Of a stretch of DNA of 64,000 bases, positions 4,331 through 63,145 are shown piece by piece. Under the pieces are notes generated by a model. That model ran no database searches. It saw nothing but the letters and a program-made list of their open reading frames with translations, and was not told the origin of the DNA. The stretch spans positions 12,038 through 76,037 of the forward strand of contig JBHLMQ010000012.1 of assembly GCA_048938005.1 (NCBI GenBank). Reading direction: 5' to 3'. Position numbers and translations under genes: made by a program. Numbering within the stretch: position 1 is the stretch's first letter; each line of letters starts with the position of its first letter. Origin of the DNA: Promethearchaeota archaeon. Lineage in GTDB: Archaea; Asgardarchaeota; Lokiarchaeia; Sigyniarchaeales; SOKP01.

Positions 4331-4436
4331 TTTGATAATGTGAAATTGCATTTTCTACCTTTTTCTCTTCTTCAAACTTTTGGGCAAGTTCTAAAAATTT
4401 TAAAGCTTCTTGTGCTAAAAATTCTGGATTTTGCAT
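1..4436 (-). CDS. Giant tandem-repeat all-alpha protein, 3' end runs off the window (at least 1478 codons). At least 13 repeats of about 115 aa, each an MIT/TPR-like helical module plus an E/K/Q/R-rich coiled-coil linker
   Basis: My manual minus-strand translation from ATG (complement 4434-4436) gives MQNPEFLAQEALKFLELAQKFEEEKKVENAISHYQKAADFLKQ... and stays open to base 1. Trp codons at 264-266, 612-614 and 2001-2003 are all in the same frame. It is absent from the ORF track, presumably because no stop lies inside the window. There is no N-terminal signal peptide or TM segment. Confidence 0.8.
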   Translation of the reverse strand, partial: MQNPEFLAQEALKFLELAQKFEEEKKVENAISHYQKAADFLKQSGFLMHRIQEIYDRISELKEFIKKDALYQRAQEKAQIEQLQDQAFSLLEGAKKLEFDGFTEEAIQQNLSAINLLTQAGWSETQLENIRSKINKLVKDLEVKKSIQVLQQQEIELKQQETQIIPEVKPEIVGMFGQKSSVEKAKVIERFRAKKKHEEDIQNQAFVHIDTAKKFEKDKKFDNARMNYERAIELLDSIGWNAQTKNIQILIKKLNKDKADFESLQLKQKKEALRLSGDIEEQKVVLEKEAELKKEKLIEFETNKKHEEDIQLKAFNLIDIGNRLEREKKYDQALNKLNQAIQLLRSIKWDSYIQPIANLIESIKNKQKSEKVTDQLKEKREKDLAVLQDSIYKKQKTQIIESTRELDKKSIEYKEVRRDEIQKEKDLFNTLDKADEILKEKNYDDAINEYQKALSILTNLGAGWEPYASIIKNTVSNVELLKHAQFTKEYEEQKKLEERRREELEFQKQISIEINKERDRLKKKEIIIKDREEEIKLFEQRKKVAFEFLDSAINSLKQGDYDNTISNYQNAANIFAEIQWADEIPLIEDSIREVEELQRKQNILKQKKLQDSVKRQKKEDEFQKQISKYLQQEREKLKKKKIELMEREKESKFREERRIAGFKLLEEAQDNVKQGNFDKAIDIFQYSLNFFADIQWQNEINLIQNAIVELENRKIEAEIQNQIKFQAELEREKQEKAFQEHIAKEMKAQHQKLIERQIILRERENELVYRERKKEEAFGLLEKAQDFLSHRKFDEALQIYYNVINIFAQIQWTEEIPIIQEAIQSIENRKRENELNKQKLLHKAIRKETEDKAFIERIRYQREREKAELLKEKESIEEQKQLSAQNLVKQQKVFSLIEIGDKFFEEENFNDTINNYNKAIEILKDIGWGEQYLKLLHETIQTIKLRGKEKEKEKQIEFEASLKQQKEDDLFQKKISEYMLKEQKKLKDKKIEIQKREDLAKRIELRKSEAFKIMDDAQTLLIQGDYVKSIEKYHQAELILNEINFPTGVIGEMISKIQEKIREEDLNRFKELELRIKREQEELLFQKQILEKIRFEEQKMIEKQEKLKKQEELRIFQEQKEEEAFKKLEIAQKHIQQGKFDEAINLYHEAAEIFREIKWDEEIKLIQNSIIAVEDKKREAELRKQRELQSAMEKEKQEKLFQEKLIGEMRIQREKLKREEIKIRERDKELAYRERKKEEAFSLLEKGQTCISQSKFDDAIELYHNVANIFAQIQWGDEIPIINKAIQDIKKKKRKKELLRQKSITEAIEKEKENYTFMERIRHLREIERVQALEEREIIQKKELLTTQNLAKQQEAFKLINDGYTSLYQKDYDEALNNYQNAINILTEIGWTSDYLKLLQDTLNTIKARKRDIEREKKFEIESLKQHKKEEEQFQKKISEYMQIEQERLRAKNIEIKKQEKIKQLLENRKIEAFAILE

Positions 4437-4644
4437 TTTAGGCAATTCTACTTAATCTTATTATGAAATAAAAAATATACAAACATTATTCTTACTTTAA
4501 TTTAACCACACCAAGTAATTAAACTTTTTATATTGTTATAATTATTTTAACTAGATTATTGAAAACGATAAATAAAATTGAATTTATAAGAATATTGAAC
4601 TCAAATTTTTCAAAAAAAACAATCCTCATTACTGAAACTAAGTT

Positions 4645-6845: not shown

Positions 6846-7370
6846 ATGTCAAGTTTTAAACTGAAAGTATTACTTACTGGTGCTGCTGCTGTTGGAAAGA
6901 CTAGTCTTGTCCAACGATTCATCAAGAATAGGTTCCAAGCCAATTACAAGTTAACTGTAGGAGTTGATATTTTAACCAAAGATGTTGAATTTAGGCAAGG
7001 AGAGATTGCCACTTTAAGTATTTGGGATATAGGAGGACAACAACGATTCGAATTTATACGTAGTACATTCTATAAAGGTGCGGCAGGAGCATTATTAGTC
7101 TTTGACTTGACTAGAGAACAAACATATACTGAAACGAGAAAGTGGCTAACTGAGATAAGACAATTTGCTGGTGAGAATATCCCATTTGTTTTAATAGGAA
7201 ATAAAGCGGATTTAATGGAAGATGTTGGTATGGTCATAGATCGAAATGATGCTCGCTCATATGCTGAAAATGAGGGAAGTATTTATATAGAAACTTCTGC
7301 TAAAACGGGTGTTAATGTTGATGAAGCGTTTACTGAATTAACACGTCGTATTATTGATTCTAGAACTTAG
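6846..7370 (+). CDS. Rab/Ras-like small GTPase (174 aa, no C-terminal prenylation Cys)
   Basis: G1 LTGAAAVGKTSL, G3 WDIGGQQRF, G4 GNKADL, G5 ETSAKTG. Rab-like YKLTVGVD switch I region. The protein ends ...RRIIDSRT. Confidence 0.85.
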   Translation: MSSFKLKVLLTGAAAVGKTSLVQRFIKNRFQANYKLTVGVDILTKDVEFRQGEIATLSIWDIGGQQRFEFIRSTFYKGAAGALLVFDLTREQTYTETRKWLTEIRQFAGENIPFVLIGNKADLMEDVGMVIDRNDARSYAENEGSIYIETSAKTGVNVDEAFTELTRRIIDSRT

Positions 7371-9923: not shown

Positions 9924-11762
9924 CTAATTATTTAAAAGTTTTTGTAATTTTTGAATTTGCTGCTCAATCTTTTTTACATATTCACTAACTTTTTCCTTTT
10001 TCTCTTTAAGTTCATCTTTAGTTATTTCTCCTGTAAGTTCTTTCATCTCAAAATCCAAAGACATCTTGGTAAGATTCGCTTTTTTAATTTTAAGTTCTAA
10101 TAACGACTTTTTTAAATCATCTTTTTGTTGAGTATCCATAATTATAGGTTCCTGTTTTACTTTGCTAATTACTTCAGAAGTGATTTTATCTACTGAATTT
10201 ACCGTTGTTTTTGGAATTTTCAATTTCTTAGATTCAGGTATACTTGTTTTAACTTTTTGTTCCATTAATCTAATTGGTGAAACTGGTACAGGTGCTTTAA
10301 ATTCATCAGTATTTTTTACCTGGCTGAATGGTGATATTTTTAATTTAGATTTTGCATCTTTTGGAACAAATTCTACTGATTTTGGTTTAATTTTTACCAT
10401 AAAATCTTCGGGATTTAATTTTAAACCAACATTTTCTTTAATAACTCCAGTTTCCTTAGGTTTAACAATTTCTTTAGTATCTTTAACACTTATTTCAGGC
10501 TGAAGTGAATTAATATCAGATTTTGGGATGTGAGGGGATTTATTTAATATAGGTGTTTCTACTGCTTTCTGTTCGGTCTTTAGTTCTTGATGTATTGATG
10601 GAGGTGATTGTGGTGTTATTGTTGATTTTGGTAGAGAAATTGACTTTTCTAATTCTTCTGCTTTTTTATGAAATACCGGAGCTTGTTGTTCTTCAGGTAT
10701 TATAGGTACTGCTGGTGTGGGCGGTGGAGCACCTACTTTTTTTAACATATCTTTTATTTTTTGAGATTTTTCAAAAAATTCTCTTCCCAACGAATCATCT
10801 CCTAATTCAATGCATAAATCGCTAATTTTATCGAATAAGAATGCAGCTTTATTGAAATCAGCATTCTTTAAGGCTTTAACTGCTTCCTCAGTTAATTTAT
10901 CTCTCTCAAGTAAAGGTTTTAAAAGAGGAGAGACTTCTGCACTCATCTCTAAAATATCTGCAATTATTTGAATCATTTTATCACGATTTTTAGGATCTAA
11001 TGCTATCATAGAATAAGCTTTTAAACCTAACAAATTCTCAATTTGAACGGGATTCATTGCGCTTTTTAAATCTTGTTTATTTCCTATTACAGCAGACTGA
11101 GCATATGGCGCTTGTTCTTTTATTAGTTCTAAGAAATATTTACTTTTTTCAACATTTTCTAGTGTAGAATCAGTAATCAAAAGAATTGCATCACTACCTT
11201 TAATGAAGTTATTCCATAAATAGCTAAATTGCTCTTGTCCTGCAAAATCCCATAAATGAAAATGTAATTTTCCAATTCTTATAGTTGCTATATCACCAGT
11301 AATTGTGGGAATATGTTGCATTGGAATCTCATCTGCTTTGATCAATCTAGTAATTGTAGTTTTTCCAACTCCAGAAAATCCAACTAAAGAAATTTTAGGA
11401 CGTAAATTTCTATGAATTGAATCTATAATAGGATCAAAAACTTCAAAAGTTTTTGCATCAAAACGATGTTGTAAAATATCTGCAAATAAATTTAAAAACT
11501 CAGTTTTACATTTAACTAATTCTTTTTTAATATTCTCGAATTTATCGGTCAAACTTGACACAAATAAAAAAATAAGGTTAGTTTCTTTTTCTGTTATGAA
11601 GGATACCCTATATTTATAATAATCATGAAAACCTAATTTAGATTCGCGACTAATCAATGCTTCGTCAATGATATCTTCTACTAGAAGATTTAAAGCTTCT
11701 TGCTTTAACGCTTTACCAAAATGTCTATAATATAGAAGTTCATTGCCTCTGTATATAAACAC
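9924..11762 (-). CDS. Multidomain small GTPase: N-terminal longin/roadblock-like domain, Arf/Rab-like GTPase domain, single TPR/MIT-like helical hairpin, Pro/Lys/Ser-rich disordered linker of about 200 aa, C-terminal coiled coil
   Basis: G1 LVGFSGVGKTTI, G3 LWDFAGQEQF, G4 IGNKQDL. About 120 aa of alpha/beta pattern precede G1 (NLIFLFVSSL...). EEAVKALKNADFNKAAFLFDKISDLCIELGDD follows the G domain. Next comes GAPPPTPAVPIIPEEQQAP and then low complexity. The tail is a heptad-like KDELKEKKEKVSEYVKKIEQQIQKLQKLL. Confidence 0.8.
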   Translation of the reverse strand: MFIYRGNELLYYRHFGKALKQEALNLLVEDIIDEALISRESKLGFHDYYKYRVSFITEKETNLIFLFVSSLTDKFENIKKELVKCKTEFLNLFADILQHRFDAKTFEVFDPIIDSIHRNLRPKISLVGFSGVGKTTITRLIKADEIPMQHIPTITGDIATIRIGKLHFHLWDFAGQEQFSYLWNNFIKGSDAILLITDSTLENVEKSKYFLELIKEQAPYAQSAVIGNKQDLKSAMNPVQIENLLGLKAYSMIALDPKNRDKMIQIIADILEMSAEVSPLLKPLLERDKLTEEAVKALKNADFNKAAFLFDKISDLCIELGDDSLGREFFEKSQKIKDMLKKVGAPPPTPAVPIIPEEQQAPVFHKKAEELEKSISLPKSTITPQSPPSIHQELKTEQKAVETPILNKSPHIPKSDINSLQPEISVKDTKEIVKPKETGVIKENVGLKLNPEDFMVKIKPKSVEFVPKDAKSKLKISPFSQVKNTDEFKAPVPVSPIRLMEQKVKTSIPESKKLKIPKTTVNSVDKITSEVISKVKQEPIIMDTQQKDDLKKSLLELKIKKANLTKMSLDFEMKELTGEITKDELKEKKEKVSEYVKKIEQQIQKLQKLLNN

Positions 11763-34713: not shown

Positions 34714-36387
34714 ATGGATAAACAGAGAATTTTGAAAGAAGCTCAACGTATTGCTAAGGAATTTTCTTTTTGGATGGTTTCGGGAAATATATCTCATTTA
34801 TATGGTTATATATATGAAACTCCGGAAAAAAAATATGAATTGGAAATCAAGTTTGATGAAAATTTTCCGAATAGTCCCCCTCAAATGATTTATAATAATG
34901 AGATTAAAGAATTATTAGGAAATTTTCAGTTAAATAATCTTATTAATTGGACACCTGAGTCTAGCGTAGTTAATATTATTTATGAGCTTAAAACAAAAAT
35001 TGAAGATGTTTTGAAATCACTTAAAGAAATAACAGAAAAAAGATTAATTCCAATTGAAGAAGAACACACTATTGATAGTACTTCCAAAAGTGAAGAATAT
35101 ATTACACCTGATCTAAATGTTTACCCACCAGATTTTCAATATGATGAATATATTACTACTTCAGCTTCTCCTGATGATTTATTTTATAGCGAACAGCCAT
35201 TTATGAGCCCATCAAGTGATTTTGATTCATCTCTTATCGACAAATCTGAAAATGAATCCAAAATATCAATTCAAGAAAATATTATAGAGGAGAATAACCA
35301 ATTAAGTGTTTTAATTAATACTGAATTAGGTTTAATTCAACAAGAATATGCTTATGATCAACTAGGATCCAAGAGAGCAGATATTAATGTTTATATTACA
35401 ATAACTCTTACAAAAACATTTATAATTTCAATAAATTTCATGAGTTACCCTAAACGACCAATTATAACCTTTCCTGATGAGTTGAACAAAATATTAAGGG
35501 ATCCTTACAAAACCTTGAGCACTTTGAGAGAATGGAATTCTAAAACACCATTACACATTGTAGATATCATCCATGAATTAGAGAAAAAATTATTTTTTAT
35601 TAGAGAAATAGAACTTCAATCTAAAAAAATTTCAGGCGAATATCAATGTGAAAAAGTTCCTGCTAGTATCACAGCACTACAAGTTCATTTATTAACTTAT
35701 GGTTTTAAGAAATATAATATGAGTATTGATCTTGAGTCTTATCCAAATCCCCCTATTCTTGATTTATCCTCTGAATTGGAGGAAATTATCCAGATCCCCA
35801 TTACAGAATTAAACGCCTATAAAAATTGGATAGAAAAAGAATCTGAACCAGTCGAAATTATAAGAGAAATTTCTTGGTTAGTTGATAAGAATTCGAGAAT
35901 TAATTTTGAAATTGATTTATTAAAAGACCATTATCAAAATATAAAATATGAACCATCAACAGCAACTATAAATATAGAAATGAAAGGTAAAATGAAAACT
36001 GAAGATTTAACGTTTGAATTTCAAATTAATTTACCTATTGAATATCCAATGAAAATGCCCGAAGTTAAAGTTATAAACGAATTTGAACTTGAAGCTCATG
36101 AGAAAATAAAAAATAACTTACATGCCTCATTTAATGACTTTTTTAATGAATGGACACCATTTAGTTATCTTGTAGATTTATTTAATTTAATTTCTAAGAA
36201 AATTTTTGAAGTATCAGTAGTATCGTGTGTCATCTGCCACAAAATTGAATGTCCAAGTTGTACTAAAAAAATTGCAGGTGAAGATAATTGTCATTCAGAA
36301 TGTCCCCATTGTAATAGAGTATATCATAAACATTGTTGGGAACAAACTATTAAATCATTTGGTAAATGTGGTTTCTGCTTAAGATAG
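34714..36387 (+). CDS. Four tandem UBC-fold E2-variant (UEV/RWD-like, no catalytic Cys) domains plus C-terminal RING-H2-like zinc finger
   Basis: Each domain has a YPxxP(P) flap followed by a W..(T)P helix. D1: FDENFPNSPPQMIY...GNFQLNNLINWTPESSVVNIIYEL. D2: MSYPKRPIITF...LREWNSKTPLHIVDIIHEL. D3: ESYPNPPILDL...YKNWIEKESEPVEIIREI. D4: IEYPMKMPEVKV...FNEWTPFSYLVDLFNLI. The finger is CVICHKIECPSCTKKIAGEDNCHSECPHCNRVYHKHCWEQTIKSFGKCGFC. Confidence 0.6.
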   Translation: MDKQRILKEAQRIAKEFSFWMVSGNISHLYGYIYETPEKKYELEIKFDENFPNSPPQMIYNNEIKELLGNFQLNNLINWTPESSVVNIIYELKTKIEDVLKSLKEITEKRLIPIEEEHTIDSTSKSEEYITPDLNVYPPDFQYDEYITTSASPDDLFYSEQPFMSPSSDFDSSLIDKSENESKISIQENIIEENNQLSVLINTELGLIQQEYAYDQLGSKRADINVYITITLTKTFIISINFMSYPKRPIITFPDELNKILRDPYKTLSTLREWNSKTPLHIVDIIHELEKKLFFIREIELQSKKISGEYQCEKVPASITALQVHLLTYGFKKYNMSIDLESYPNPPILDLSSELEEIIQIPITELNAYKNWIEKESEPVEIIREISWLVDKNSRINFEIDLLKDHYQNIKYEPSTATINIEMKGKMKTEDLTFEFQINLPIEYPMKMPEVKVINEFELEAHEKIKNNLHASFNDFFNEWTPFSYLVDLFNLISKKIFEVSVVSCVICHKIECPSCTKKIAGEDNCHSECPHCNRVYHKHCWEQTIKSFGKCGFCLR

Positions 36388-41418: not shown

Positions 41419-42438
41419 GTGATTAATATGATAATTCGTTCAAAAGCACCATTCAGAGTGAGCTTTGGAGGAGGAGGAACAGATATGGCTCCCTATTGTA
41501 TTGAACATGGGGGCTGTGTGATAAACACTACAATTGATCGTCATATTTATATTACTTTAAAACCAAGAAAGGATAAAAATATCCATGTTTTTTCAATTAA
41601 TCTCAATAAAGAAGCAACTTTTAAAATTGGAGATAGAGACTACTCTAATGAATTTGAATTAATTAAAGGTATTATTCATGTTTTAGAAGTAAAAGATGGG
41701 TTTGATATCACGATATATTCGGAACTTCCTGCTGGTTCTGGAATGGGAGGTTCATCTTCTTTAACAGTCGCAATAATAGGAGCATTTAATAAATATTATA
41801 GATTAGGAATGCCTAAACATAAAATTGCACAAAAAGCATATGATATTGAACGTATCGAATTAAAACAGAAAGGTGGATATCAAGATCAATTTGCTGCCGC
41901 ATATGGGGGTCTAAATTTTATAGAATTCACCGAGGATGTAAAAGTAATTCCTATAATTGCTAGTGAAGAAATGTTAAATGAGCTCCAATTTCGTTTAATT
42001 TTATGTTATGTGGGAGGTTCTCATTTTTCTTCTAATATACAAGATGAAGTATTAAAAGGTTATGAAATTGAAAAGAAATCATATATAGAAGCAATGCAGG
42101 ATCTAAAAGATGTAGCCCATTATATGAGAAATATTGTAGAATCCAATAAAATAAATAAATTAAATGAATTTGGAGAACTATTACATAAAGGTTGGTTAGC
42201 AAAAAAGAGTTTAAGTACAAAAATCTCAAACAAAAAGATTGAGAATTTTTATTTAACTTCAAGGAAGTTTGGTGTTCTTGGAGGAAAATTACTTGGCGCA
42301 GGAGGAGGGGGCCATTTATTACTTTTTTCAGATTATGGTAAGAAATTTAAAATAATTCAAGAACTAGAAAAAATTGGTGGAAAAATTATAAATTTTCATT
42401 TTAACCCAAAAGGACTTGAAGTATGGGAAATAAAATAA
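41419..42438 (+). CDS. hddA: GHMP-family D-glycero-alpha-D-manno-heptose 7-phosphate kinase (HddA-like)
   Basis: KAPFRVSFGGGGTDMAPY (COG2605 signature), LPAGSGMGGSSSL (GHMP motif II), GAGGGGHLLLF. Confidence 0.75.
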   Translation: MINMIIRSKAPFRVSFGGGGTDMAPYCIEHGGCVINTTIDRHIYITLKPRKDKNIHVFSINLNKEATFKIGDRDYSNEFELIKGIIHVLEVKDGFDITIYSELPAGSGMGGSSSLTVAIIGAFNKYYRLGMPKHKIAQKAYDIERIELKQKGGYQDQFAAAYGGLNFIEFTEDVKVIPIIASEEMLNELQFRLILCYVGGSHFSSNIQDEVLKGYEIEKKSYIEAMQDLKDVAHYMRNIVESNKINKLNEFGELLHKGWLAKKSLSTKISNKKIENFYLTSRKFGVLGGKLLGAGGGGHLLLFSDYGKKFKIIQELEKIGGKIINFHFNPKGLEVWEIK

Positions 42439-42468
42439 TTAAAAGATAATTAAAAAAGAGAATATATT

Positions 42469-43035
42469 ATGGAAAATGAAATAATTTCAATTTTGGATGA
42501 AAATATCAAAATAAAAGAAGCTACAAAAGCTTTAACACCGACTATAGCAAAGATTTCTGAAAAAATAATAAATGCCTATAAGAATAGGAAAAAAGTTGTA
42601 CTTTTCGGAAATGGAGGAAGTGCAGCTGATGCTCAACACATAGCAGCTGAGTTTGTAGGAAAATTTTATCATGATCGTGATTCACTTCCTTCTTTAGCAT
42701 TTCATACGAATACCTCTATTCTTACTGCAATAGCTAATGATTTTGGCTATGAATTTGTGTTTGAAAGACAAGTGTCCTCGTTTGTGGATGAAGGAGATGT
42801 AGTTATTGGAATTAGCACATCAGGTAATTCTCCAAACGTAATAAAAGGTTTGATAAAAGCTAAAGAAAAAGGAGCAATTACAGTAGGCTTCACTGGCGAA
42901 AAAAAAAGTAAAGTTGAAGAAATTGCTGATATCTGTCTAAAGATACCTTCATCCGATACTCCAAGAATTCAGGAAGGCCATATAACTGTTGGACATATTA
43001 TTTGTTATTTAGTCGAAAAAGAATTTTTTGGATAA
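42469..43035 (+). CDS. gmhA: Phosphoheptose (sedoheptulose-7-phosphate) isomerase
   Basis: LFGNGGSAADAQHIAAEF, GISTSGNSPNV, QEGHITVGH. Confidence 0.9.
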   Translation: MENEIISILDENIKIKEATKALTPTIAKISEKIINAYKNRKKVVLFGNGGSAADAQHIAAEFVGKFYHDRDSLPSLAFHTNTSILTAIANDFGYEFVFERQVSSFVDEGDVVIGISTSGNSPNVIKGLIKAKEKGAITVGFTGEKKSKVEEIADICLKIPSSDTPRIQEGHITVGHIICYLVEKEFFG

Positions 43036-45946: not shown

Positions 45947-46813
45947 ATGGAATTGTCTAAAGCTGATGAACAGAAAATCTTAATTGATATTCTGGATATC
46001 AAAAAAGATATTTTGATGATGATATATAAAGCCCAATCGGGTCATCCGGGAGGCTCATTATCGTGTGCTAATATCATATATCTCCTTTATAACTATATTA
46101 TGAGAATAAATCCTGAAAATCCTACATGGGAAGAAAGAGATATATTTATCTTAAGTAAAGGACATGCTGCACCTGCTTTATATGCTGTCTTATCAAATTT
46201 TGGTTTTATAAATAGGGGGGAATTATTTACTTTAAGGCAATTTGGTTCTAACTTACAAGGCCATCCTGTTAAAAATCCAGAATTCGGAATAGAAATATCT
46301 ACTGGATCTTTAGGAATGGGATTATCAATCGGTGTTGGGTGTGCATTAGCTGCTAAATTAGATTCTAAAAATAAATTAATTTATGTTTTATTAGGAGATG
46401 GAGAATTAAATGAAGGTGCTATATGGGAAGCAGCAATGTCAGCTAGTCATTATAAGTTAGATAATTTAATAGCAATTGTAGACCGAAACGGGCTACAAAT
46501 AGATGGATCTACAGAAGAGATAATGGCTTTAGAACCTTTAGCAGAAAAATGGAAAGCATTTGGTTGGGAAGTTATTGAAGTTGATGGTTCAAATCTAACA
46601 GAAATAATACATGGATTTGAAAGATTAAAAACTATAATTGGTAAACCTAAAGTAATCATATCTTATCTAATTAAAGGATCTGATGTATCATTTATGCAAC
46701 ATACTAAAAAATATCATGGACGAGCGCCAAACAAAGAGGAATATGAAATCGCGCTTAAAGAACTTGAAGATATCAAGGCGGAATTAATAAGAGGTGATAA
46801 ATCAAATGTCTGA
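45947..46813 (+). CDS. Transketolase, N-terminal (TPP-binding) subunit
   Basis: GHPGGSLS, LSKGHAAPALYA, GDGELNEG. Confidence 0.9.
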   Translation: MELSKADEQKILIDILDIKKDILMMIYKAQSGHPGGSLSCANIIYLLYNYIMRINPENPTWEERDIFILSKGHAAPALYAVLSNFGFINRGELFTLRQFGSNLQGHPVKNPEFGIEISTGSLGMGLSIGVGCALAAKLDSKNKLIYVLLGDGELNEGAIWEAAMSASHYKLDNLIAIVDRNGLQIDGSTEEIMALEPLAEKWKAFGWEVIEVDGSNLTEIIHGFERLKTIIGKPKVIISYLIKGSDVSFMQHTKKYHGRAPNKEEYEIALKELEDIKAELIRGDKSNV

Positions 46814-47729
46814 ATTACCTCTTAGAGATACATTTGGAACTTTTTTAGTTGAAAAAGGTAAAATATATAAAGATATGGTTGTTTTAGATGCTGATACGTC
46901 TTTTTCTACGAAAACCGTTAAATTTTCTAAAGCATTCCCCGATAAATTCTTTAATATGGGAATTGCTGAACAAAATATGTTAGGAACAGCATTAGGTTTT
47001 GCAATCTCAGGAAAAATTCCTATAGTTAGTGGTTTTTCTATATTTACGACAGGGAGAGCATGGGAATTTATAAGATTTGCTTGCCATGATAATTTAAATG
47101 TAAAAATAGTAACTACGCATGGCGGATTTGTTGGAGAAGATGGAAGCACTCATAATGCTTTAGAAGATTTAAGCTTAATGGCATCTCTTCCAAATTTAAA
47201 TGTTTTAATCCCTTCAGATAATATTGAATTACTTCAAATATTAGAATATTCTCTCAATCATAATGGTCCTTTTTATATAAGGCTACCAAGAGGAGCTTTT
47301 CCTAAAATTCATAATCAAATTTATAAATTTTCTATTGGAGAACCTGATATAATTAAAGAAGGAGAAGATATTTGCTTGATTGGAGTTGGATATGGGAGTA
47401 TTGTAGCATTAAAATCAGCACCGAAAATTGAAAAAAAACTTAAAATTTCTATTAAAGTAATTAATTTTCCAAGTATTAAACCAATTGATAATGCATTATT
47501 ATTAAAAGAGATTAAATCAGTAAAAGGAATTATTATAATAGAGGAGCATAATATTTACTGTGGCTTTGGAAGTATAATTGCAAGGATCATCTCTGAGAAT
47601 TATCCAAAAATCATGAAATTTATTGGAATCAATAATTCATTCGGTCAATCAGGTAAGAGAGAAATTTTATTAGACTCATATGGTTTAAATGAAAAAAAAA
47701 TAATTGAGCAAATAAAAAAAATTATTTAA
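46806..47729 (+). CDS. Transketolase, C-terminal (pyrimidine-binding) subunit
   Basis: FFNMGIAEQNMLG, GEDGSTHNALEDL. The ATG at 46806 follows GAGGTGA; the track GTG at 46794 is an alternative. It overlaps the upstream subunit gene. Confidence 0.9.
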   Translation: MSELPLRDTFGTFLVEKGKIYKDMVVLDADTSFSTKTVKFSKAFPDKFFNMGIAEQNMLGTALGFAISGKIPIVSGFSIFTTGRAWEFIRFACHDNLNVKIVTTHGGFVGEDGSTHNALEDLSLMASLPNLNVLIPSDNIELLQILEYSLNHNGPFYIRLPRGAFPKIHNQIYKFSIGEPDIIKEGEDICLIGVGYGSIVALKSAPKIEKKLKISIKVINFPSIKPIDNALLLKEIKSVKGIIIIEEHNIYCGFGSIIARIISENYPKIMKFIGINNSFGQSGKREILLDSYGLNEKKIIEQIKKII

Positions 47730-47761: not shown

Positions 47762-48295
47762 TCAGTTTGGTAGGTATCCCTTTGAATCTAATGCGTCTAA
47801 TATTATTGCTTTACATTCTTCTAAAGTTTGTTTATCAGTTTCGACAACAATATCTACATTATCCGGCTCTTCAAAGGGATGATTAATTCCAGTAAAATCC
47901 TTTATTTCTCCTGCTCTTGCTTTGGCATACATCCCTTTTACATCACGTTTCTCACACTCTTCAAGACTACATTTTACATAAACTAGAATATAATTCCCGA
48001 TTTCTTTCCGAGAGTACGCTCTAATTTTATTGTATGGTGATACAAAAGAAGCAAGAACAACAACTCCATTCCGTGTTAGAAGCTTGGCTACAAATGTAAC
48101 TCTTTCAATATTCATATTTCTGTCCTCTTCACTAAATCCCAAATCTTTTGTTAGACTTTTTCTAACAATATCCCCATCAAGTCTTTCTACTTTCATTCCT
48201 TTCTCCTTTAAAGTTTCTGCAACTGCATCTGCTAATACTGATTTCCCAGAACAAGGGAGTCCTGTAAACCATAATGTAAATCCTTTATGTTCCAT
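47762..48295 (-). CDS. cysC: Adenylylsulfate (APS) kinase
   Basis: LWFTGLPCSGKS P-loop, LDGDIVR, FVSPY. Confidence 0.9.
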   Translation of the reverse strand: MEHKGFTLWFTGLPCSGKSVLADAVAETLKEKGMKVERLDGDIVRKSLTKDLGFSEEDRNMNIERVTFVAKLLTRNGVVVLASFVSPYNKIRAYSRKEIGNYILVYVKCSLEECEKRDVKGMYAKARAGEIKDFTGINHPFEEPDNVDIVVETDKQTLEECKAIILDALDSKGYLPN

Positions 48296-48314
48296 CTTTT
48301 TTATTTTACTTATT

Positions 48315-49703
48315 TTAAAAATTTATTATATTTCCTTCCATATCATTAGGAATATTTACTCCTAGAATTTTCAGAGATGTTGGAGCAATATCTAAAATGC
48401 TTTTAATTCCTAAATTTTTTCCTATCTTTTTTATAGGATCATAAATAACATAAATCCCAAACCAATCGTGTACGGCATCATCAGGACCAGTATCATTTTC
48501 GTCTAAATACATTGAGTCATACCCAACTGTCCCTGCGGATCTCCAATTTAGATCATCAAAATAAACAAATAAATCTGGTGGGTCTCCCCTTATAACTTTA
48601 AATAATTCCTCAGGTTTAAAGATTTTTGTGTTCATTGAATTACCATTATTATCTTTTATGGATTTTAGTTTTTCAATGATTTGATCTCTTACTTCCTCAT
48701 ACTTTTCTTGTTTAATAATCCCATGAGGCTCTCTTCCTTCGATATTAAGAAATATTCTAGCATAATAACCACCCCACCCCCATGCATAAGTATTATCCCA
48801 ATCAACATCAGCATCTGCTAATCTTGTTTTAGGTTTTGGTTTGGTTTTAAATTTTAGTAATCCTAAATTTTCAAGTGCCATATTGACACACACTAATCCT
48901 TTCATTGCTTTAGCACCATGGTCTGACACAATCATCATAATTGTATTTTCATCCACTAAATCCAATATCTCTCCAATTTTTTTATCTAAATATTGATAAT
49001 ATTTTCTCATTTCTCCTTCAAATTTATTTCCCGGTTCATATTTATGGTGACTTTTATCATAGAATTTCCAAAATGCATGGTGGAATCTATCTAAACCAAT
49101 AATTACAAAATTAAAATAATCCCACTCCTTATTTCGCATAATATATTTAACTGTTTTTAATTGAACTTTTGTCATTTCGTAAATCTCTTTCAATAAAACA
49201 TTTTTATCTTCCACTCTAAAGTTAACATCTATGATATAATCTCCTACATTTTCTTTAATTTCTTCTTTTAATTCTCGAGGATATGTATAATCTGAGGTTA
49301 TATCGGGAGTAATGAAACCAGAAACTAGACACCCATTAATTGGTTGAACAGGATAGGTTGGGGGAATTCCTACTATGCAAGATCTTAAACCATTTCTCGA
49401 AATTATGTCCCATACTTTTGGATCTTTAATATTATAAGACGTAGCAATCCAAAAATCATCATATGAATTTCCTTTTCTATGTCTAAATCCATATAATCCT
49501 AATGTTCCAGCTTTCTTACCAGTAGACATCACCATCCAAGCAGGAATGGTAATTGGTGGATCACATGATCTCAATTTTCCATAAACACCATATTCTACCA
49601 TCTTTTTTATGTTAGGGCAATCATCTAAGAAATCTTCAAACAATGTTTTGGGTGTTGCACAATCTAATCCTATGATAACTAATTTTTTTTTATTTTTATT
49701 CAT
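48315..49703 (-). CDS. Alkaline-phosphatase-superfamily phosphodiesterase/nucleotide pyrophosphatase-like protein (COG3379 type), located between sat and cysC
   Basis: VIIGLDCATP, PPITIPAWMVMSTG (Thr nucleophile region), VSDHGA. Confidence 0.7.
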   Translation of the reverse strand: MNKNKKKLVIIGLDCATPKTLFEDFLDDCPNIKKMVEYGVYGKLRSCDPPITIPAWMVMSTGKKAGTLGLYGFRHRKGNSYDDFWIATSYNIKDPKVWDIISRNGLRSCIVGIPPTYPVQPINGCLVSGFITPDITSDYTYPRELKEEIKENVGDYIIDVNFRVEDKNVLLKEIYEMTKVQLKTVKYIMRNKEWDYFNFVIIGLDRFHHAFWKFYDKSHHKYEPGNKFEGEMRKYYQYLDKKIGEILDLVDENTIMMIVSDHGAKAMKGLVCVNMALENLGLLKFKTKPKPKTRLADADVDWDNTYAWGWGGYYARIFLNIEGREPHGIIKQEKYEEVRDQIIEKLKSIKDNNGNSMNTKIFKPEELFKVIRGDPPDLFVYFDDLNWRSAGTVGYDSMYLDENDTGPDDAVHDWFGIYVIYDPIKKIGKNLGIKSILDIAPTSLKILGVNIPNDMEGNIINF

Positions 49704-49747
49704 GATTTATTTTATCTTGCATTTCTATTGATAAATAAAAATTTTAC

Positions 49748-50896
49748 TTAGGAAACAAATGGATTTTGATACTCTAGAATAACTTCTGCTACCTCTGGAC
49801 GCATAACTTCGGGATCTGGGGCTTTTCCTGATTGTAATGTATTACGAATTTCCCTTCCAGCAAAGTAATTCTGCATCTCTGGAGGATGAGGACAAATTTT
49901 ATCATTAACTATTGAATTACATTTGCTGCATTTTGAAAATGATCTGAATTTTATTGGTTCTATTCCTAAATCTGGAAAATAATCAAAAATCTCATGAGCA
50001 TCATATGGTCCATAATAATTACCTACACCTGCATGATCTCTGCCTATAATTATGTGATCACATCCAAAGTTTTTTCTTGCTATTGCATGAAAAATTGCCT
50101 CTTTAGGTCCCGCATATCTCATTTCAGTTTCAAATGTACTTAAAACTACCCTATCTTTTGGATAGTATTCTTTTATCAGAACTTGATATGTACGTATAAT
50201 AACCTCATCTAAAAAATCCCCAATTTTCTTCTTACCAATTACAGGATTTATAAAAAGCCCATCTACATAGGTTAAACCTGCTTTTTGTACATATTCATGG
50301 CCTAAATGAGGTGGATTTCTTGTTTGAAAAGCTACAACTTTGTTCCACTTTTTTTCTTTAAAAAGAACTCTTGTTTCTATTGGTTTAAGGTCCAATTCCG
50401 GAAAAACTGATTTAGGTTCATTTATTAAAAAAATCTCACCTCCAACTAGTTTATCTTTCATTTTGAAAACTGAACTAACACCCGGATGGTTATTATCAAG
50501 TGTGCCATACACTTTTTCTGCTAATTCCTTTTTATCATAATCATATATCTCTTCAACTGCCATCAGAGCAATTATGGTTTCTTCTGAATCAACCAACAGC
50601 ACTCTGTCATCAGTGCTAAAAGATCTCGCCTTTTCTTCAGTAATATCCAACACTATAGGAATTGGCCATGCTAAATTGTTCTCCAAATACATATGTTCTA
50701 AAACATATTTATAATCATTCTTATTCATAAATCCTTCCAAAGGGCTGAAGACTCCATGTGCAATATTTTTAATCACCTTTACAGTTGGTTGATTTACTGA
50801 TATTTTTTCAAATTCATGTATTTCATCTAAAATTCTATTTTTTTCAATTTTTGGTAATTCCTTATTTATTAAACTACCACCATGAGGCTGAATCAT
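49748..50896 (-). CDS. sat: Sulfate adenylyltransferase (ATP sulfurylase)
   Basis: FQTRNPPHLGHEY, IIGRDHAGVG, and PUA-like N-terminal domain. Confidence 0.9.
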   Translation of the reverse strand: MIQPHGGSLINKELPKIEKNRILDEIHEFEKISVNQPTVKVIKNIAHGVFSPLEGFMNKNDYKYVLEHMYLENNLAWPIPIVLDITEEKARSFSTDDRVLLVDSEETIIALMAVEEIYDYDKKELAEKVYGTLDNNHPGVSSVFKMKDKLVGGEIFLINEPKSVFPELDLKPIETRVLFKEKKWNKVVAFQTRNPPHLGHEYVQKAGLTYVDGLFINPVIGKKKIGDFLDEVIIRTYQVLIKEYYPKDRVVLSTFETEMRYAGPKEAIFHAIARKNFGCDHIIIGRDHAGVGNYYGPYDAHEIFDYFPDLGIEPIKFRSFSKCSKCNSIVNDKICPHPPEMQNYFAGREIRNTLQSGKAPDPEVMRPEVAEVILEYQNPFVS

Positions 50897-50950
50897 CTTT
50901 ATATACTCCGATTATTTATTAAAATTCTATATATTATTACTACTTGTTTT

Positions 50951-51190
50951 TCAATCGATATAACCTAAATCTCTAAGGCGTTGTTTAACTTTTTCTTCTT
51001 CTTCCTTAGTAAATGCTTGCTTGGATCGCTCATCTTCCTCTATGGAAGATATTACTTGTCTAAGTACATATGTCACATAACTAGAAACAGATGAAAACCC
51101 AGTTCCTTTCATACGTTGCTTAATCTTTTCCACAAGGGGTTTAGGTATTGAAACTGTAGTGTATTCAACTTTTAGGTCATCTTCTGACAT
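50951..51190 (-). CDS. Ribbon-helix-helix (CopG-like) DNA-binding protein upstream of the sat operon
   Basis: The beta-strand plus helix pattern YTTVSIPKPLVEKIKQRMKGTGFSSVSSYVTYVLRQV. Length 79 aa. Confidence 0.55.
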   Translation of the reverse strand: MSEDDLKVEYTTVSIPKPLVEKIKQRMKGTGFSSVSSYVTYVLRQVISSIEEDERSKQAFTKEEEEKVKQRLRDLGYID

Positions 51191-51727
51191 AAGCTTTACC
51201 TAAAATTTATTTAAATTATTATAATTAAATTTAATGGTATATAATTAAAAATAATTAAAAAAGCTTTTTAAAAATTCTGCTTTGGATTTTACATCTTAAA
51301 TTAAACTTATTTGGTATTTTTTATTTATTTTATTTAATTATTATTAGTGTTATAATTCATTTTGGAATTAAACTAAAAATTTTGTACGAAAAGCTCTTTA
51401 GCATTACAGCTTGCTAGTTTAGGATATAAAATCACAGGAATTGATCAAAAAAAAGGTTAAAGATTTTCTTTCAGAGAAGTAATTTTCTAATAAAGTTTCT
51501 TTAAATTTTATCTATAAATTTAGAAATTAAGATTCTGATATTTCTGTTGATTTTTTGTCCTTCAATATTATAATCAAAAGCTCCAAATAATGTAATTAAT
51601 AAATTTAAAGCGATTAAATAATCTATTTAACGTAATCTGTTTTAAAATGATAATTTTTTCATCAATTAGTATTTTAAAGTATTTAATATTCATTAAAATG
51701 TTATTTAGATATCAAAATTTCTAAAAG

Positions 51728-52630
51728 ATGAGTAAAACATTGAATCTTAAAAGCATTAAAACACTTTTAAAAAAGATAAAAAACCCATTAACTTTTCGGA
51801 ATGCTCTTCTATATAAATTCTGTTCATTTTTATACCGTAAAAACAACGGTTTCTATATTTTTAATGAATCATGGGACAATTTAATCATCTTGGATGCATG
51901 TAGATATGATGTTTTTAAAGAGCAATATTTAAAAAGAAATATGAAAGGGGAGCTATTTAAAAAAGTTTCAAGAGGAGCTCATACAATCTCTTTTCTTTTT
52001 GAAAATTTCACAAAGAATTATTATGATGATATTATATATATAACAGCTAATCCTTATGTTAATAAATTTCTCAAAGGTAAATTTTATAAGATTATTTCAG
52101 TATGGAAAGACAATTGGGATGAAAAACATCACACAGTTTTACCAGAAACTATGTATGATTATGCTATTAAGACTTTATTAAAGTATCCTAATAAAAAATA
52201 TATAATCCATTTCATGCAACCACATTTTCCATATATTGGTTATAAATTAGAAAAGAATATTCCGAATAAATCTTTTTTTTCGTTATATGCTGCAGAAATA
52301 TATACTCATATAGAATATTATACTCATATTAAAATTTATAAAAAAAATTTACAAATAGCCCTAACTTATATTGAAAAGCTTATCAATGTATTACCAGGTA
52401 TAACCATAGTTTCTGCGGATCATGGAGAAGCATTTAAAGAAAAATTACATACATTAATACCATTCACATTTTCTGGTCATAGAAGAGGAATTCGTATGCC
52501 CTCTTTAGTAAATGTTCCCTGGCTTATAATTAGACCAGAAGAAAAAGATCATAGCATCAGAAATAACTTATTAGAAGAATTTATAATTTCAGATCAAGTA
52601 AATAAACTAAAAAATAAGAAAGTTATTTAA
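51728..52630 (+). CDS. Small alkaline-phosphatase-superfamily (sulfatase-fold) protein
   Basis: LIILDACRYD (metal Asp), GAHTISF (possible Thr nucleophile), VSADHGEAF. Confidence 0.5.
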   Translation: MSKTLNLKSIKTLLKKIKNPLTFRNALLYKFCSFLYRKNNGFYIFNESWDNLIILDACRYDVFKEQYLKRNMKGELFKKVSRGAHTISFLFENFTKNYYDDIIYITANPYVNKFLKGKFYKIISVWKDNWDEKHHTVLPETMYDYAIKTLLKYPNKKYIIHFMQPHFPYIGYKLEKNIPNKSFFSLYAAEIYTHIEYYTHIKIYKKNLQIALTYIEKLINVLPGITIVSADHGEAFKEKLHTLIPFTFSGHRRGIRMPSLVNVPWLIIRPEEKDHSIRNNLLEEFIISDQVNKLKNKKVI

Positions 52631-53703: not shown

Positions 53704-54462
53704 ATGGTCATAATCTCTCATAAGCATAAATTTATATATATCAAAACAAGAAAGACAGCAAGTACATCTCTTCAAGTCTTATTAGCAAATTATTGTGGAA
53801 AAGAAGATATTATTACCCCAATAAAAGATCCTTCAACAGAAGATGGTATTCTATATAATAAAAAAGCAAAAAATTATAGAGGTCTTCTAAGTTATTTATT
53901 CCTTCTTAAATACAGGTTTTTAAATTTTGTTTCTACAACAAATCATAAAGTTTTTTTTAATAAAATCAAAAATTTCCTTGTAAATAGGCATTATTTAGAG
54001 AATTTAAAAGGATTTTTCAGTAATTTCACTAGTCATATGAGTGCTAGAAAAGTGAAAATGAAAGTGGGTGAAGGTTTATGGAATAAATATTTTAAATTTA
54101 CTTTTGAAAGAAATCCTTGGGATAAATTAGTTTCATTTTATATGCATCGTAAACCAGGGATACCATTTGATGATTGGGTTCGAACAGTGAAATTAAGTCC
54201 TTATAGTCAACCTCTTAATTATCCGTTATATACTATAAATGGAAAAATAGTTTTAAATTTTATAGGAACCTATGAAAACTTGGAAAAAGATTTAAAATTA
54301 ATATTTAATACATTAAAACTTCCTTTAAAAGAACTCCCTTCTGAGAGAACTAATTATCGAAAGGAAAAATCTAATTATAGAAAATATTATAATAACCAAT
54401 CTAAAAAAATTGTAGAAAGAAATTATAATAAAGAGATAAAATTATTTGGATATACATTTTAA
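53704..54462 (+). CDS. PAPS-dependent carbohydrate-type sulfotransferase (Sulfotransfer_2-like)
   Basis: The 5'-PSB motif is IKTRKTASTSL and the 3'-PB motif is ERNPWDKLVSFY. These compare with the CHST-type P-K-x-x-x-T-S and R-x-P-x-x-R-L-V-S-x-Y patterns. Confidence 0.7.
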   Translation: MVIISHKHKFIYIKTRKTASTSLQVLLANYCGKEDIITPIKDPSTEDGILYNKKAKNYRGLLSYLFLLKYRFLNFVSTTNHKVFFNKIKNFLVNRHYLENLKGFFSNFTSHMSARKVKMKVGEGLWNKYFKFTFERNPWDKLVSFYMHRKPGIPFDDWVRTVKLSPYSQPLNYPLYTINGKIVLNFIGTYENLEKDLKLIFNTLKLPLKELPSERTNYRKEKSNYRKYYNNQSKKIVERNYNKEIKLFGYTF

Positions 54463-60344: not shown

Positions 60345-61817
60345 ATGGAAAAGACTCCTAATGAAAAAGCAGTTTTCCTTATAACTATCGATGCTTTAAG
60401 AGCAGATCATTTGAGATTTTATGGATATCATAGAAATACAGCACCAAATTTAGAAAAATTTTCTGAAAACGGAACCACTTTTTTAAATACTATAACAAAT
60501 GGTCCAGAAACACCTTCTTCCTTTTCTACAATTTTTAGCTCCCAATTACCTTTTTCTGGTGGTGGTTATAGCCCTTTACCATTAAATAAAATCATTTTTC
60601 CTCAAATACTCAAAAAGAATGGAATATTCACATATGGAATTCATAGTAATCCGCATTTAGGGGAATTTTTTAATTACAATCGCGGTTTTGACATATTTTT
60701 AGATGGTGAGAGATATAAATCAGAATTTCATGGACCAAAAAGATATTCATTTAAAACTGTTTTAAGACTAAAAATAAGAAAAATATTAAACTATAGAAAT
60801 CTTTCGAGGAAACTTACTTATCGCATTAAAGGATTCAATAATATTAAATATTGGATACGGGAGAAATTTCCTTTTTTAACAGAGTTATTCCTACCTTTTT
60901 TATCAATTGCTTACAACGCGACATTTGTGACCAAGACCATTATCTCATTTCTTCAAAAATATGAAGGACCACTCTTTTTATGGGCACATTTTATGGATGT
61001 ACATAGTCCTTTCAATCCACCTTCTAAAAATATTTTAAATTTTAGAGATAAAGATATTAGATATTTAGAAAGAGAGTTCTTAAATGAACATATACGTTTA
61101 AGGCCAGAAGAATTCAACGTAACTGAGGAATTAGTTAACAATTTGAAAGATTTATATGATGGTGAGATCAATTTTTTAGATGAATCCTTAGATAATTTGC
61201 TCAAATTAATTAAAAAAAAGTACAAAAGGGAATGTTTAATAATAATAACTGCAGATCATGGTGAATCTTTTTATGAACATGGGTATTTTCATCATACAGG
61301 AAGCATTTACGATGAATTATTAAAGGTCCCATTATTTCTCGTGGAGATAGGTAAAAAACCTCAAGTAAAAAAAATAGAAAAATTAGTTCAACTAAAAGAT
61401 ATTCCTGTTACTATTCTAGATTACTTTAATATCAACATCCCTCAAGATTATCAGGGTAAAAGTCTTTTACCTCTACTCTCTGGAAACCAAATTGAAGATG
61501 AAAGGTATGTGATTTCAGAATGTTATCAGAAAAGCGGAAAAATAAAAAGGAATAATAAAGAGGGTTTTATTTTAATCTCGATAAGATCTAAAAAATGGAA
61601 ATATATCTATGATGAAGAGAAAAATTTAGAACATTTCTATGATCTTTTAACTGATCCAATGGAAAAAAATAATCTTATTGAGGATCCCCCCGAAGATTTA
61701 GAAGAATTTCGAGAGATTAAAGATCTTCATTTAAAAAGAGTAAGAGATTCACAAGAAAAACTTAAAATTTTAAAATCTATTAGTAAAATTAAATATGAGC
61801 AAAATCAAAATAATTAG
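60345..61817 (+). CDS. Sulfatase-fold (AlkP superfamily) protein lacking the C/S-x-P-x-R formylglycine motif
   Basis: ITIDALRADHL, ITADHGESFYEHGYFHH. The position of CxPxR reads E-T-P-S-S (NGPETPSSFSTIFSS). Confidence 0.7.
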   Translation: MEKTPNEKAVFLITIDALRADHLRFYGYHRNTAPNLEKFSENGTTFLNTITNGPETPSSFSTIFSSQLPFSGGGYSPLPLNKIIFPQILKKNGIFTYGIHSNPHLGEFFNYNRGFDIFLDGERYKSEFHGPKRYSFKTVLRLKIRKILNYRNLSRKLTYRIKGFNNIKYWIREKFPFLTELFLPFLSIAYNATFVTKTIISFLQKYEGPLFLWAHFMDVHSPFNPPSKNILNFRDKDIRYLEREFLNEHIRLRPEEFNVTEELVNNLKDLYDGEINFLDESLDNLLKLIKKKYKRECLIIITADHGESFYEHGYFHHTGSIYDELLKVPLFLVEIGKKPQVKKIEKLVQLKDIPVTILDYFNINIPQDYQGKSLLPLLSGNQIEDERYVISECYQKSGKIKRNNKEGFILISIRSKKWKYIYDEEKNLEHFYDLLTDPMEKNNLIEDPPEDLEEFREIKDLHLKRVRDSQEKLKILKSISKIKYEQNQNN

Positions 61818-61821
61818 GCGG

Positions 61822-63145
61822 ATGATTATATATAAGAAATATAATTCTCGGAATTGATGGTGGAACATTCAACCATATTATTCCATATATCAAGAAGAGG
61901 TTATTACCTAACTTTAAAAAACTATTTCGAGAGGGATTTTACTCCGATTTGAATGTAACGATTCCTCCTGTAACAATTCCTTCATTTCCTTGTCTTTTTA
62001 CTGGTCTGTCAGTTAAGGATCTTGGATATTGTACTTTTTATGATCCATCATTTGGTATTTTTTCTTCAAAATTATGGAGAGAATGGAGTATAATGAGTAA
62101 TACTAATCTACGTATATTTTGTTTAAATCTCCCATCCTCATATCCAGCTTGGAACTTTAACGGTGAAATGATAACAGGGATGATAACTCCCACATTGAAT
62201 GAAAAAATGTACTTTCCTAATGGGATTGGTAAAATAATTAGAAAGGACTGGATAATTGACGGATCCGATATTAATGAAATTTTTCAAGCCTTTAAAATTA
62301 AAAGTAAATTGTTTTTAGAAAAATTGAAAGAAGATTTTGAATTATTTATCTATATCATCCGCGTCCCGGACTGTATAACCCATCACCCTAAATATAGATT
62401 AAAACGTACTCAAGATATTATAAAAGAGGGATATAAAAGAATCGATAATTTTTTGGGAAAAATACTAAGTTCAATAAATTTTGACAATTTATTTATCATC
62501 AGCGATCATGGTTTAAAAATTTATCAATATGAATTTAATATCAAGCGTTTTCTAGAAAAAGAAAAAGTTTTATTCTATAATAATGATAAAATCTCTAAAT
62601 TTATGAGTATTTTCGTTAAAATATTTGGATTTTTTAATAGAACTCTATTTGATACAACTTTTTTTCATAATAACTTTAAAACGTTCTTAACAAAATTAAA
62701 AGCTAAAATTAATCCTTCGGGTTCTCAAAATAAAAAAATAAATATTCTAAATAAGTCAAGGTTTATACATTTCTATTCAAATTATGGAGGATTATATTTA
62801 AGTGAATATGATAAAAAATTCAAAAAAAAAATTAAAATTATATCAAAAAAATGTAAATATATTGAAGATGTCATAGAATTTGATTCAAAAACATTACCTG
62901 ATCTCATTTTTTGTTTAAAAAGTAATTACCTCTATAGTGTTAAGAGTTCTTTTTTCTTAAAAAACCGCTTCAATTCCTTTAATCATTCTGATAAAGGAAT
63001 TTTTATCGCGTATGGAAAAAATATTATACATGGACGTTCTAACGAAACTAATTATTTGGACTTTATTCCTACGCTTTTAAAATTATATGAAATCCCAATT
63101 CCTGCTCATATGAGAGGGAGAATTCTCAAAATAATCAATAAATAG
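61822..63145 (+). CDS. COG3379-type AlkP-superfamily phosphodiesterase-like protein; the 5' end requires a +1 frameshift or a non-canonical start
   Basis: Conserved N-terminal IILGIDGGTFNHIIPYIKKRLLPNF is encoded upstream of the track start (61949), in a frame that opens at 61826 without ATG, GTG or TTG. The ATG at 61822 is in the -1 frame. Skipping T61840 gives MIIYKKIILGIDGG. Also PPVTIPSFPCLFTG and IISDHGLK. Confidence 0.65.

Follow-up and report, generated by a model that had tools for sequence, protein, structure and literature searches.

In the Thermococcales, the genes for sulfate activation lie together in a small cluster. In Pyrococcus yayanosii, PYCH_17520-17560 encode in this order a CopG protein, ATP sulfurylase, a characterised 3'-phosphoadenosine 5'-phosphate (PAP) phosphatase (pApase) of the DHH type, a type I phosphodiesterase/nucleotide pyrophosphatase and adenosine 5'-phosphosulfate (APS) kinase, and this cluster is conserved across several Euryarchaeota and Crenarchaeota (Jin et al. 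2021, PMC8268124). These authors did not find a sulfotransferase or a sulfite-forming enzyme in P. yayanosii, and the degradation of inorganic pyrophosphate (PPi) by the nucleotide pyrophosphatase gene was put forward by them as a speculation (PMC8268124). In Thermococcus onnurineus, according to PMC4463584, which cites Lee et al. (2009, J Bacteriol 191:3415), TON_1704 is an APS kinase, TON_1705 a pyrophosphatase (PPase), TON_1706 a PAP phosphatase and TON_1707 an ATP sulfurylase. Table 1 of PMC9653972 gives a kcat of 2.1 s-1, a Km of 18.8 uM and a pH optimum of 9.5 for TON_1705, and the same source a kcat of about 3x10^4 s-1 and a Km of 1.1 mM for the canonical PPase Ton1914. Here we describe a locus of this kind in a Promethearchaeota archaeon, found in a stretch of 64,000 nucleotides (contig JBHLMQ010000012.1, positions 12,038 to 76,037; hereafter the window), in which the genes for ATP sulfurylase (sat) and APS kinase (cysC) enclose the gene for an enzyme of the alkaline phosphatase (AP) superfamily with a nucleotide pyrophosphatase/phosphodiesterase (NPP) fold, which we call AlkP. 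The locus is an Asgard copy, without the DHH pApase gene, of the already published archaeal sulfate-activation cassette and, as it stands, it confirms known biology in a new lineage.

The window belongs to an Asgard metagenome-assembled genome (MAG) of 3.72 Mb, which is 95% complete and has a GC content of about 28%. Four co-directional open reading frames (ORFs) make up the cassette (Table 1), a small copG-like gene first and then sat, the NPP-family gene and cysC, with gaps of 54 nt between the regulator and sat, 44 nt between sat and the AlkP gene and 19 nt between the latter and cysC. A first-pass annotation of this DNA had given the same positions and gaps, which were confirmed by the ORF coordinates, and the identities it proposed for sat, the AlkP-family gene and cysC were established by Pfam and NCBIfam matches. 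These are the same genes in the same order as in the Thermococcales clusters (TON_1704-1707 and PYCH_17520-17560) and, like P. yayanosii, the genome lacks a sulfite-forming pathway. In contrast to the Thermococcales, where a DHH pApase gene is inserted between sat and the NPP gene, no DHH gene is present at this locus, the host is an Asgard archaeon, and the cassette is embedded in a heptose/glycan island with a Sulfotransfer_2 gene adjacent.

Table 1. Coordinates of the sulfate-activation cassette and associated features in the window
Feature	Position	Strand	Evidence or remark
cysC, APS kinase (177 aa)	47762-48295	-	Pfam APS_kinase 2.6e-60; NCBIfam apsK TIGR00455 229.8 bits, cut-off 138.7
AlkP/NPP-fold enzyme (462 aa), cytoplasmic	48315-49703	-	Pfam Phosphodiest PF01663 8.3e-44
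sat, ATP sulfurylase (382 aa)	49748-50896	-	Pfam PUA_2 4.2e-50 and ATP-sulfurylase 1.8e-84; NCBIfam NF003166 494.5 bits, cut-off 387
CopG/RHH-like regulator (79 aa), putative	50951-51190	-	heads the cassette; P. yayanosii counterpart annotated copG
Candidate operator/promoter	51220-51257	-	TAATTAT-like repeats upstream of the regulator
Sulfotransfer_2-family protein (252 aa)	53704-54462	+	PF03567 8.5e-10, 39.6 bits, cut-off 22

Two other described systems are comparable in part. In some eukaryotes ATP sulfurylase/APS kinase has a family I PPase fused to it or associated with it (Bradley et al. 2009, as cited in PMC11210485), which follows the same logic of a PPi remover tied to sulfate activation, although the eukaryotic enzyme has an OB-fold and AlkP the unrelated fold of the AP superfamily. 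The M. thermolithotrophicus locus (Jespersen et al. 2023, PMC10322725) has standalone ATP sulfurylase and APS kinase, and its PAP phosphatase, of the DHH type, is a homologue of the enzyme found in sister cassettes of ours, but its pathway runs on to a reductase for 3'-phosphoadenosine 5'-phosphosulfate (PAPS) and to Fsr and is hence assimilatory, unlike the one considered here; the term 'alkaline phosphatase' is absent from the text of that paper.

By synteny and by its 53% identity to the equivalently placed gene of a Thermococcus MAG cassette (L089), AlkP appears to be the counterpart of TON_1705 and PYCH_17550. By analogy, the hydrolysis of PPi may be its physiological role, and on the whole we lean towards a reading in which this NPP-fold enzyme hydrolyses the PPi made by Sat, within the published sulfate-activation cassette and in the service of glycan sulfation. 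The conversion of ATP and sulfate to APS and PPi by Sat is strongly unfavourable; the cytoplasmic AlkP enzyme would hydrolyse PPi present at low concentration, pulling the Sat reaction forward, CysC would phosphorylate APS to PAPS with the formation of ADP, and the Sulfotransfer_2 enzyme encoded 2.5 kb away would transfer the sulfuryl group of PAPS to the glycan built by the island. We infer a glycan as the acceptor, a HAL2/CysQ-like enzyme encoded on another contig as the phosphatase that would remove the by-product PAP, and the small CopG/ribbon-helix-helix (RHH) protein as a repressor, which would act on the operon at the TAATTAT repeats upstream of its own gene. According to this reading, the gene between sat and cysC, in Asgard archaea and in many other genomes, is best annotated by reference to the TON_1705-type AP-fold pyrophosphatase and not as a PAP phosphatase or a sulfatase.

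Gene fusions were consistent with this role. In seven Chloroflexota MAGs, and also in P0136, Sat and AlkP share one reading frame, 863-970 aa long; fusions with CysC have either AlkP or CysC first (P0141, L092, L069), and in P0146 AlkP is joined to a MobA-like nucleotidyltransferase. Since Sat and the nucleotidyltransferases share only the release of PPi, the fusions of AlkP to both fit a function in PPi removal. The GDP-heptose pathway likewise ends in a PPi-releasing step, and a Verrucomicrobiota orthologue of AlkP, 49% identical, was found among SIS/GHMP-kinase genes of the heptose type, without sat or cysC. Two singleton clusters had the AlkP domain fused to a pyruvate-kinase barrel, P0157 (1151 aa, also containing Sat) and P0217 (786 aa); pyruvate kinase would regenerate ATP from the ADP of CysC, and a pyruvate-kinase query found no such gene in the 80 best loci of the wider scan described below.

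The structure of AlkP was predicted with AlphaFold2 on an alignment of 91 sequences, with a predicted local distance difference test (pLDDT) score of 96.8. The nearest solved structures were ENPP4 (Z 30.5), Xac NPP (Z 30.4), ENPP6 and ENPP7, all with Z values of 30.2-30.5, at a root-mean-square deviation of 3.2-3.4 A over 339-348 residues and 14-16% identity; Foldseek also matched ENPP1 (E ~1e-18), and the next-nearest structures were phosphonoacetate hydrolase, the PafA/SPAP phosphatases and the sulfatases. The predicted active site consists of the nucleophile Thr52, in the motif PPITIPAW, and the metal ligands Asp14, Asp205/His209, Asp261/His262 and His412, these seven residues being invariant or at least 90% conserved in the two alignments examined (A1 and A2), and many Arg and His residues are conserved besides them. 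Sequence comparisons agreed with the fold: in Pfam the protein matched only PF01663 and, weakly, PF00884, with no match to a sulfotransferase family or to the Inositol_P fold of CysQ/HAL2 (PF00459), and no NCBIfam model was matched. A sequence search of the Protein Data Bank with the single protein gave no match. AlkP is thus a member of the AP superfamily and not of the soluble PPase families I (PF00719) or II (DHH/DHHA2), so that working as a PPase would not place it in the known PPase families.

The fold, the Thr nucleophile and the six metal ligands are shared with the characterised NPPs (ENPP4, ENPP6, ENPP7 and the Xanthomonas NPP). In contrast to these, which are typically secreted or ecto-enzymes of about 380 aa, AlkP has large insertions, is operonic with Sat and CysC and is cytoplasmic, and the reported substrate of its Thermococcus counterpart is PPi and not a nucleotide diester. 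The first beta-strand of the model, which leads to the metal-binding Asp14, begins at residue 7, too near the N-terminus for a signal peptide to precede it; this bears out the first-pass annotation, which had seen no signal peptide and had named an extracellular location as evidence that would contradict its proposal. Haloferax Agl7 (HVO_2046) was considered as a lead to an AP-fold enzyme of sulfation and was dropped, since the papers give no domain annotation for it.

We searched 201 Asgard genomes for AlkP and found an orthologue in 56 of them, and only a longer paralogue in 5 more. Its closest homologues were in Promethearchaeota and in Thor-, Hermod-, Odin- and Hodarchaeota. In all of the 30 best Asgard loci AlkP was flanked by sat and cysC, an arrangement which, by its recurrence, is far beyond chance, and the small regulator gene headed the cassette in 28 of these 30 and in most of the other loci. 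The order of the genes was the same in these 30 loci and in the Thermococcus locus L089. In distant Asgard families the gene order was shuffled and the linkage of the genes was kept, and sat was present in 55 of the 56 genomes bearing the orthologue. In families f5 and f14 and in genome G165, where the AlkP orthologue is absent, sat usually lies in a frame of about 580 aa, which by length alone corresponds to a Sat-CysC fusion; the same genomes have many Sulfotransfer_3 genes, up to 9 each.

A wider scan, in which a single genome stood for each prokaryotic species, yielded no fewer than 593 matching stretches in Archaea and Bacteria, with about 50% identity between both domains; the cassette is widespread. 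The best 80 loci, which were the ones examined, had 47-55% identity to the query and came from many archaeal and bacterial phyla, among them Bathyarchaeia, Hadarchaeota, Thermococcus, Archaeoglobaceae, Thermoplasmatota, Nitrososphaerota, Aminicenantes, Eubacteriales and Chloroflexota; most had the arrangement RHH-sat-AlkP-cysC. In 60 loci the sequence extended for at least 3.5 kb to either side of AlkP, and among these the neighbours included sat and cysC in 39, cysC only in 7, sat only in 3 and neither of them in 11. AlkP is conserved about as much as Sat and CysC (53, 54 and 50% identity, respectively, to the Thermococcus locus), and such conservation across the domains of life would be expected for a small invariant substrate more than for a variable glycan. 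For this reason a further proposal of the first-pass annotation, that AlkP might be a sulfo- or phosphotransferase acting on the glycan, is disfavoured.

The proposal that PAPS serves here as a sulfuryl donor and not for assimilation was, on the other hand, supported by the genome. Neither the PAPS reductase family (PF01507) nor sulfite reductase (PF01077) had a match in the 95%-complete genome, where cysH- and cysI-type genes had been suggested as a check, and the predicted sulfotransferase 2.5 kb from the operon was confirmed by its PF03567 match and is the only Sulfotransfer_1/_2/_3 match of the genome, being probably the consumer of PAPS. The operon therefore marks a capacity for sulfation, not for sulfur assimilation, in this organism. 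Matches to PF01507 in three other genomes (G038, G007 and G066) were rejected as CysH, since they are proteins of 610-670 aa encoded far from the cassette and PF01507 matches every control genome. The neighbourhood of the cassette, surveyed in 93 loci, was also one of sugar genes: NAD-dependent sugar epimerases/dehydratases were found in 29 loci, GHMP kinases in 16, family 2 glycosyltransferases (GT2) in 13 and UDP-glucose dehydrogenase in 11, with family 4 glycosyltransferases (GT4) and DegT aminotransferases also among the commonest neighbours.

Several observations weigh against PPi hydrolysis as the role of AlkP. The genome has PPases of the ordinary kinds already, one soluble (family I, C29) and two membrane PPases, and in T. 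onnurineus the kcat of Ton1914 is about 10,000-fold above that of TON_1705 (PMC9653972); with ordinary PPases present and TON_1705 slow, a PPase role would be redundant or specialised. The PPase data on TON_1705 are second-hand, through PMC4463584 and PMC9653972, and the putative orthology with TON_1705 was drawn from synteny and from the Thermococcus MAG. Archaeoglobaceae and other loci keep RHH-pApase-AlkP-cysC without sat, and cassettes in which cysC is the only partner are commoner (7) than those in which sat is (3), which ties AlkP to the PAPS side of the pathway at least as much as to the PPi side; the Verrucomicrobiota orthologues have neither gene nearby. Finally, 29 of the 56 cassette-bearing Asgard genomes, from at least 9 families, among them G038, which is closed, and G147, which is 100% complete, had no Sulfotransfer_1/_2/_3 match, so that 27 of 56 genomes with the AlkP orthologue had such a match as compared with 34 of 36 genomes with sat but no AlkP, figures to be read as a lead and not as a test, as related genomes are not independent and many of the 29 are only 75-90% complete.

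The last observation would suit a different function, in which AlkP is the cassette's own consumer of PAPS or APS, either as a non-canonical enzyme that uses its Thr nucleophile for sulfuryl transfer or as a phosphosulfate-directed enzyme with one conserved acceptor, and in which the measured PPi hydrolysis is a side activity of an AP-superfamily active site. The failure to find a sulfotransferase or a sulfite-forming enzyme in P. yayanosii (PMC8268124), the slow turnover reported for TON_1705 beside coexisting canonical PPases and the retention of AlkP, cysC and pApase in sat-less cassettes all agree with it, as does the presence of the pApase inside many cassettes, which implies a local production of PAP. 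We nevertheless regard this function as doubtful, because PPi suits the nucleotidyltransferase fusion and the heptose-gene setting lacking sat and cysC better than PAPS does, the present genome has an ordinary sulfotransferase next to the cassette, and the tally is open to incomplete and related genomes and to divergent sulfotransferases that may escape the three Pfam models. Searches with Sulfotransfer_4 and _5 were uninformative, the controls being without match, and a regular expression for the sulfotransferase P-loop, too strict a pattern, had no match in the ORFs neighbouring the cassettes. To our knowledge, moreover, no enzyme of the AP superfamily uses PAPS as donor. A role outside sulfate activation, as a phosphatase or phosphodiesterase of sugar-phosphate or nucleotide-sugar metabolism (of heptose bisphosphate, for example), linked to the PAPS genes only through a shared glycan, seems improbable to us. 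GHMP kinase is the second commonest neighbour outside the cassette, the Verrucomicrobiota loci consist of SIS, GT2, AlkP, GHMP kinase, an AlkP paralogue and GT4, a heptose cluster directly adjoins cysC in the window, and AlkP is also found fused to GT2 and to a methyltransferase; but the translational fusions of AlkP with Sat and with CysC indicate a link with the enzymes of sulfate activation themselves, AlkP adjoins sat or cysC in 49 of the 60 full-flank loci, and the heptose cluster of the window already has a GmhB phosphatase.

The first-pass annotation had instead offered AlkP as a candidate PAP-, APS- or PAPS-processing enzyme after noting that no CysQ-type PAP phosphatase was visible. 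The absence was borne out, since neither a CysQ-type nor a DHH pApase gene is present in the window, and a DHH pApase query found no match in the genome. An AP-fold PAP 3'-phosphatase replacing CysQ in the operon would also agree with the complete bimetal phosphatase site of AlkP and with G147, which has a cassette without the DHH gene and no HAL2-like match. The proposal itself was unsupported and we judge such a replacement very improbable, as dedicated pApases occur beside AlkP: in Asgard family f19 (closed genome G038) the cassette is RHH, sat, a 349-aa DHH protein, AlkP and cysC, and the DHH protein matches the solved PAP phosphatase 8A8K of M. thermolithotrophicus (E = 3.4e-39). The five-gene form was also found in Methanomethylicota, Hadarchaeota, Thermoplasmatota and Thermococcus and, without sat, in Archaeoglobaceae; the DHH gene is a variable member of the cluster, missing from many cassettes, and its coexistence with AlkP makes it unlikely that AlkP is the pApase. 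TON_1706 and PYCH_17540 were shown by experiment to be pApases (PMC4463584 and PMC8268124), while TON_1705 was reported as a PPase. The search of the genome for cysQ, which the first-pass annotation had proposed, located a HAL2/CysQ-like protein of 308 aa on contig C89, with matches to TIGR01330 (1.9e-43) and TIGR01331 (1.4e-32) that are both below the cut-offs of the models; outside the window's own family, in which 28 of 40 genomes have an orthologue of it, one was found only in G165, of a neighbouring family in the same order.

The small protein that heads the cassette had been called an RHH regulator. Its position 54 nt upstream of sat stood, whereas the family assignment is only likely: no Pfam or NCBIfam model matched it, a profile of 24 orthologues gave a weak match to the RHH domain of NikR (2BJ1, E = 0.011; 0.4 for H. 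pylori NikR), and the counterpart in the literature is annotated copG. A strand-helix-helix is putatively formed by residues 11-50; after it come an acidic linker and, at the C-terminus, a conserved tail, KEEEEKVKQRLRDLGYID (encoded at about 50954-51013). The last 20 residues are the most conserved part of the regulator, with the consensus …EEEEKVKxRLxxLGY, and 57 of 58 orthologues, from both domains of life, end in …RLxxLGY(I/L)(D/E). The tail-less exception is a regulator of 60 aa in Thermodesulfobacteriota (L087:7655-7834), with the tail, …EEEEKIKKRLKDLGYIE, found instead at the end of the AlkP orthologue that follows it (L087:7995-9461); paralogues of AlkP with a greater length (565-644 aa) also bear this tail in cis. 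The presence of the tail on the enzyme in this locus and in the longer paralogues suggests that it belongs functionally with the enzyme fold. As a tentative idea, to which we give little weight, the cassette may be a self-contained unit in which regulator and AlkP are paired through the 20-residue tail, the tail coupling the state of the enzyme to transcription, or the enzyme being the missing PAPS consumer where a canonical sulfotransferase is absent. If so, the cassette would hide a new regulatory pair of enzyme and repressor, or the fate of PAPS in organisms such as P. yayanosii. Longer AlkP paralogues of 518-571 aa, 22-30% identical to the query, often adjoin the cassette or the orthologue (L033:13704-15281 and L033:15694-17280, both in G038; L067; L096-L116); the 571-aa forms of Verrucomicrobiota end in …ERLQALGYLE like the regulator, and the 518-528-aa forms of L033 and L067 are without the tail.

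Upstream of the regulator gene we found three to four TAATTAT-like repeats spaced about 10-11 bp apart, 30-67 nt before the ATG. They overlap a TATA-like TTATATA sequence, and when 12 orthologous upstream regions were aligned no other columns were invariant; they are a candidate operator or promoter. For the pattern TAATTATN{3,5}TAATTAT, 0.19 matches were expected in the window and 2 were found. The second paired repeat (42435-42452) is localised at the 30-nt junction of a GHMP kinase (41419-42438) and a SIS isomerase gene (42469-43035), and may be a shared operator or a chance occurrence in AT-rich DNA.

According to Pfam and NCBIfam matches, the window as a whole is a glycan island, in which heptose genes occur together with glycosyltransferases, flippases and sugar-nucleotide enzymes. 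The genes on the side of cysC, for a GHMP kinase, a SIS isomerase, GmhB, an RfaE-like kinase, a transaldolase and a split transketolase, look like a heptose pathway; the opposite side has the Sulfotransfer_2 gene, a flippase, glycosyltransferases, a methyltransferase and further AP-fold paralogues. The split transketolase consists of two overlapping ORFs for the N- and C-terminal halves (45947-46813 and 46794-47729) and, together with the transaldolase and a ribulose-phosphate epimerase, which are also inside the heptose cluster, presumably feeds sedoheptulose-7-phosphate into the glycan pathway. The AP-superfamily paralogues of the island are a 300-aa protein with a weak sulfatase match (51728-52630), a 490-aa sulfatase-like protein with a SGSH_C domain (60345-61817) and a 398-aa protein of the Phosphodiest family (61949-63145); the LGY tail was seen in none of these three, and no CxPxR formylglycine motif in the first part of the 490-aa protein. 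The window also has eukaryote-like Asgard genes, for a protein with MIT and TPR matches that exceeds 1481 aa (3-4445), a Ras-family GTPase of 174 aa (6846-7370), an Arf/Roc-type GTPase of 612 aa (9924-11762) and a 557-aa protein with UBC/E2-like and RWD-like matches (34714-36387).

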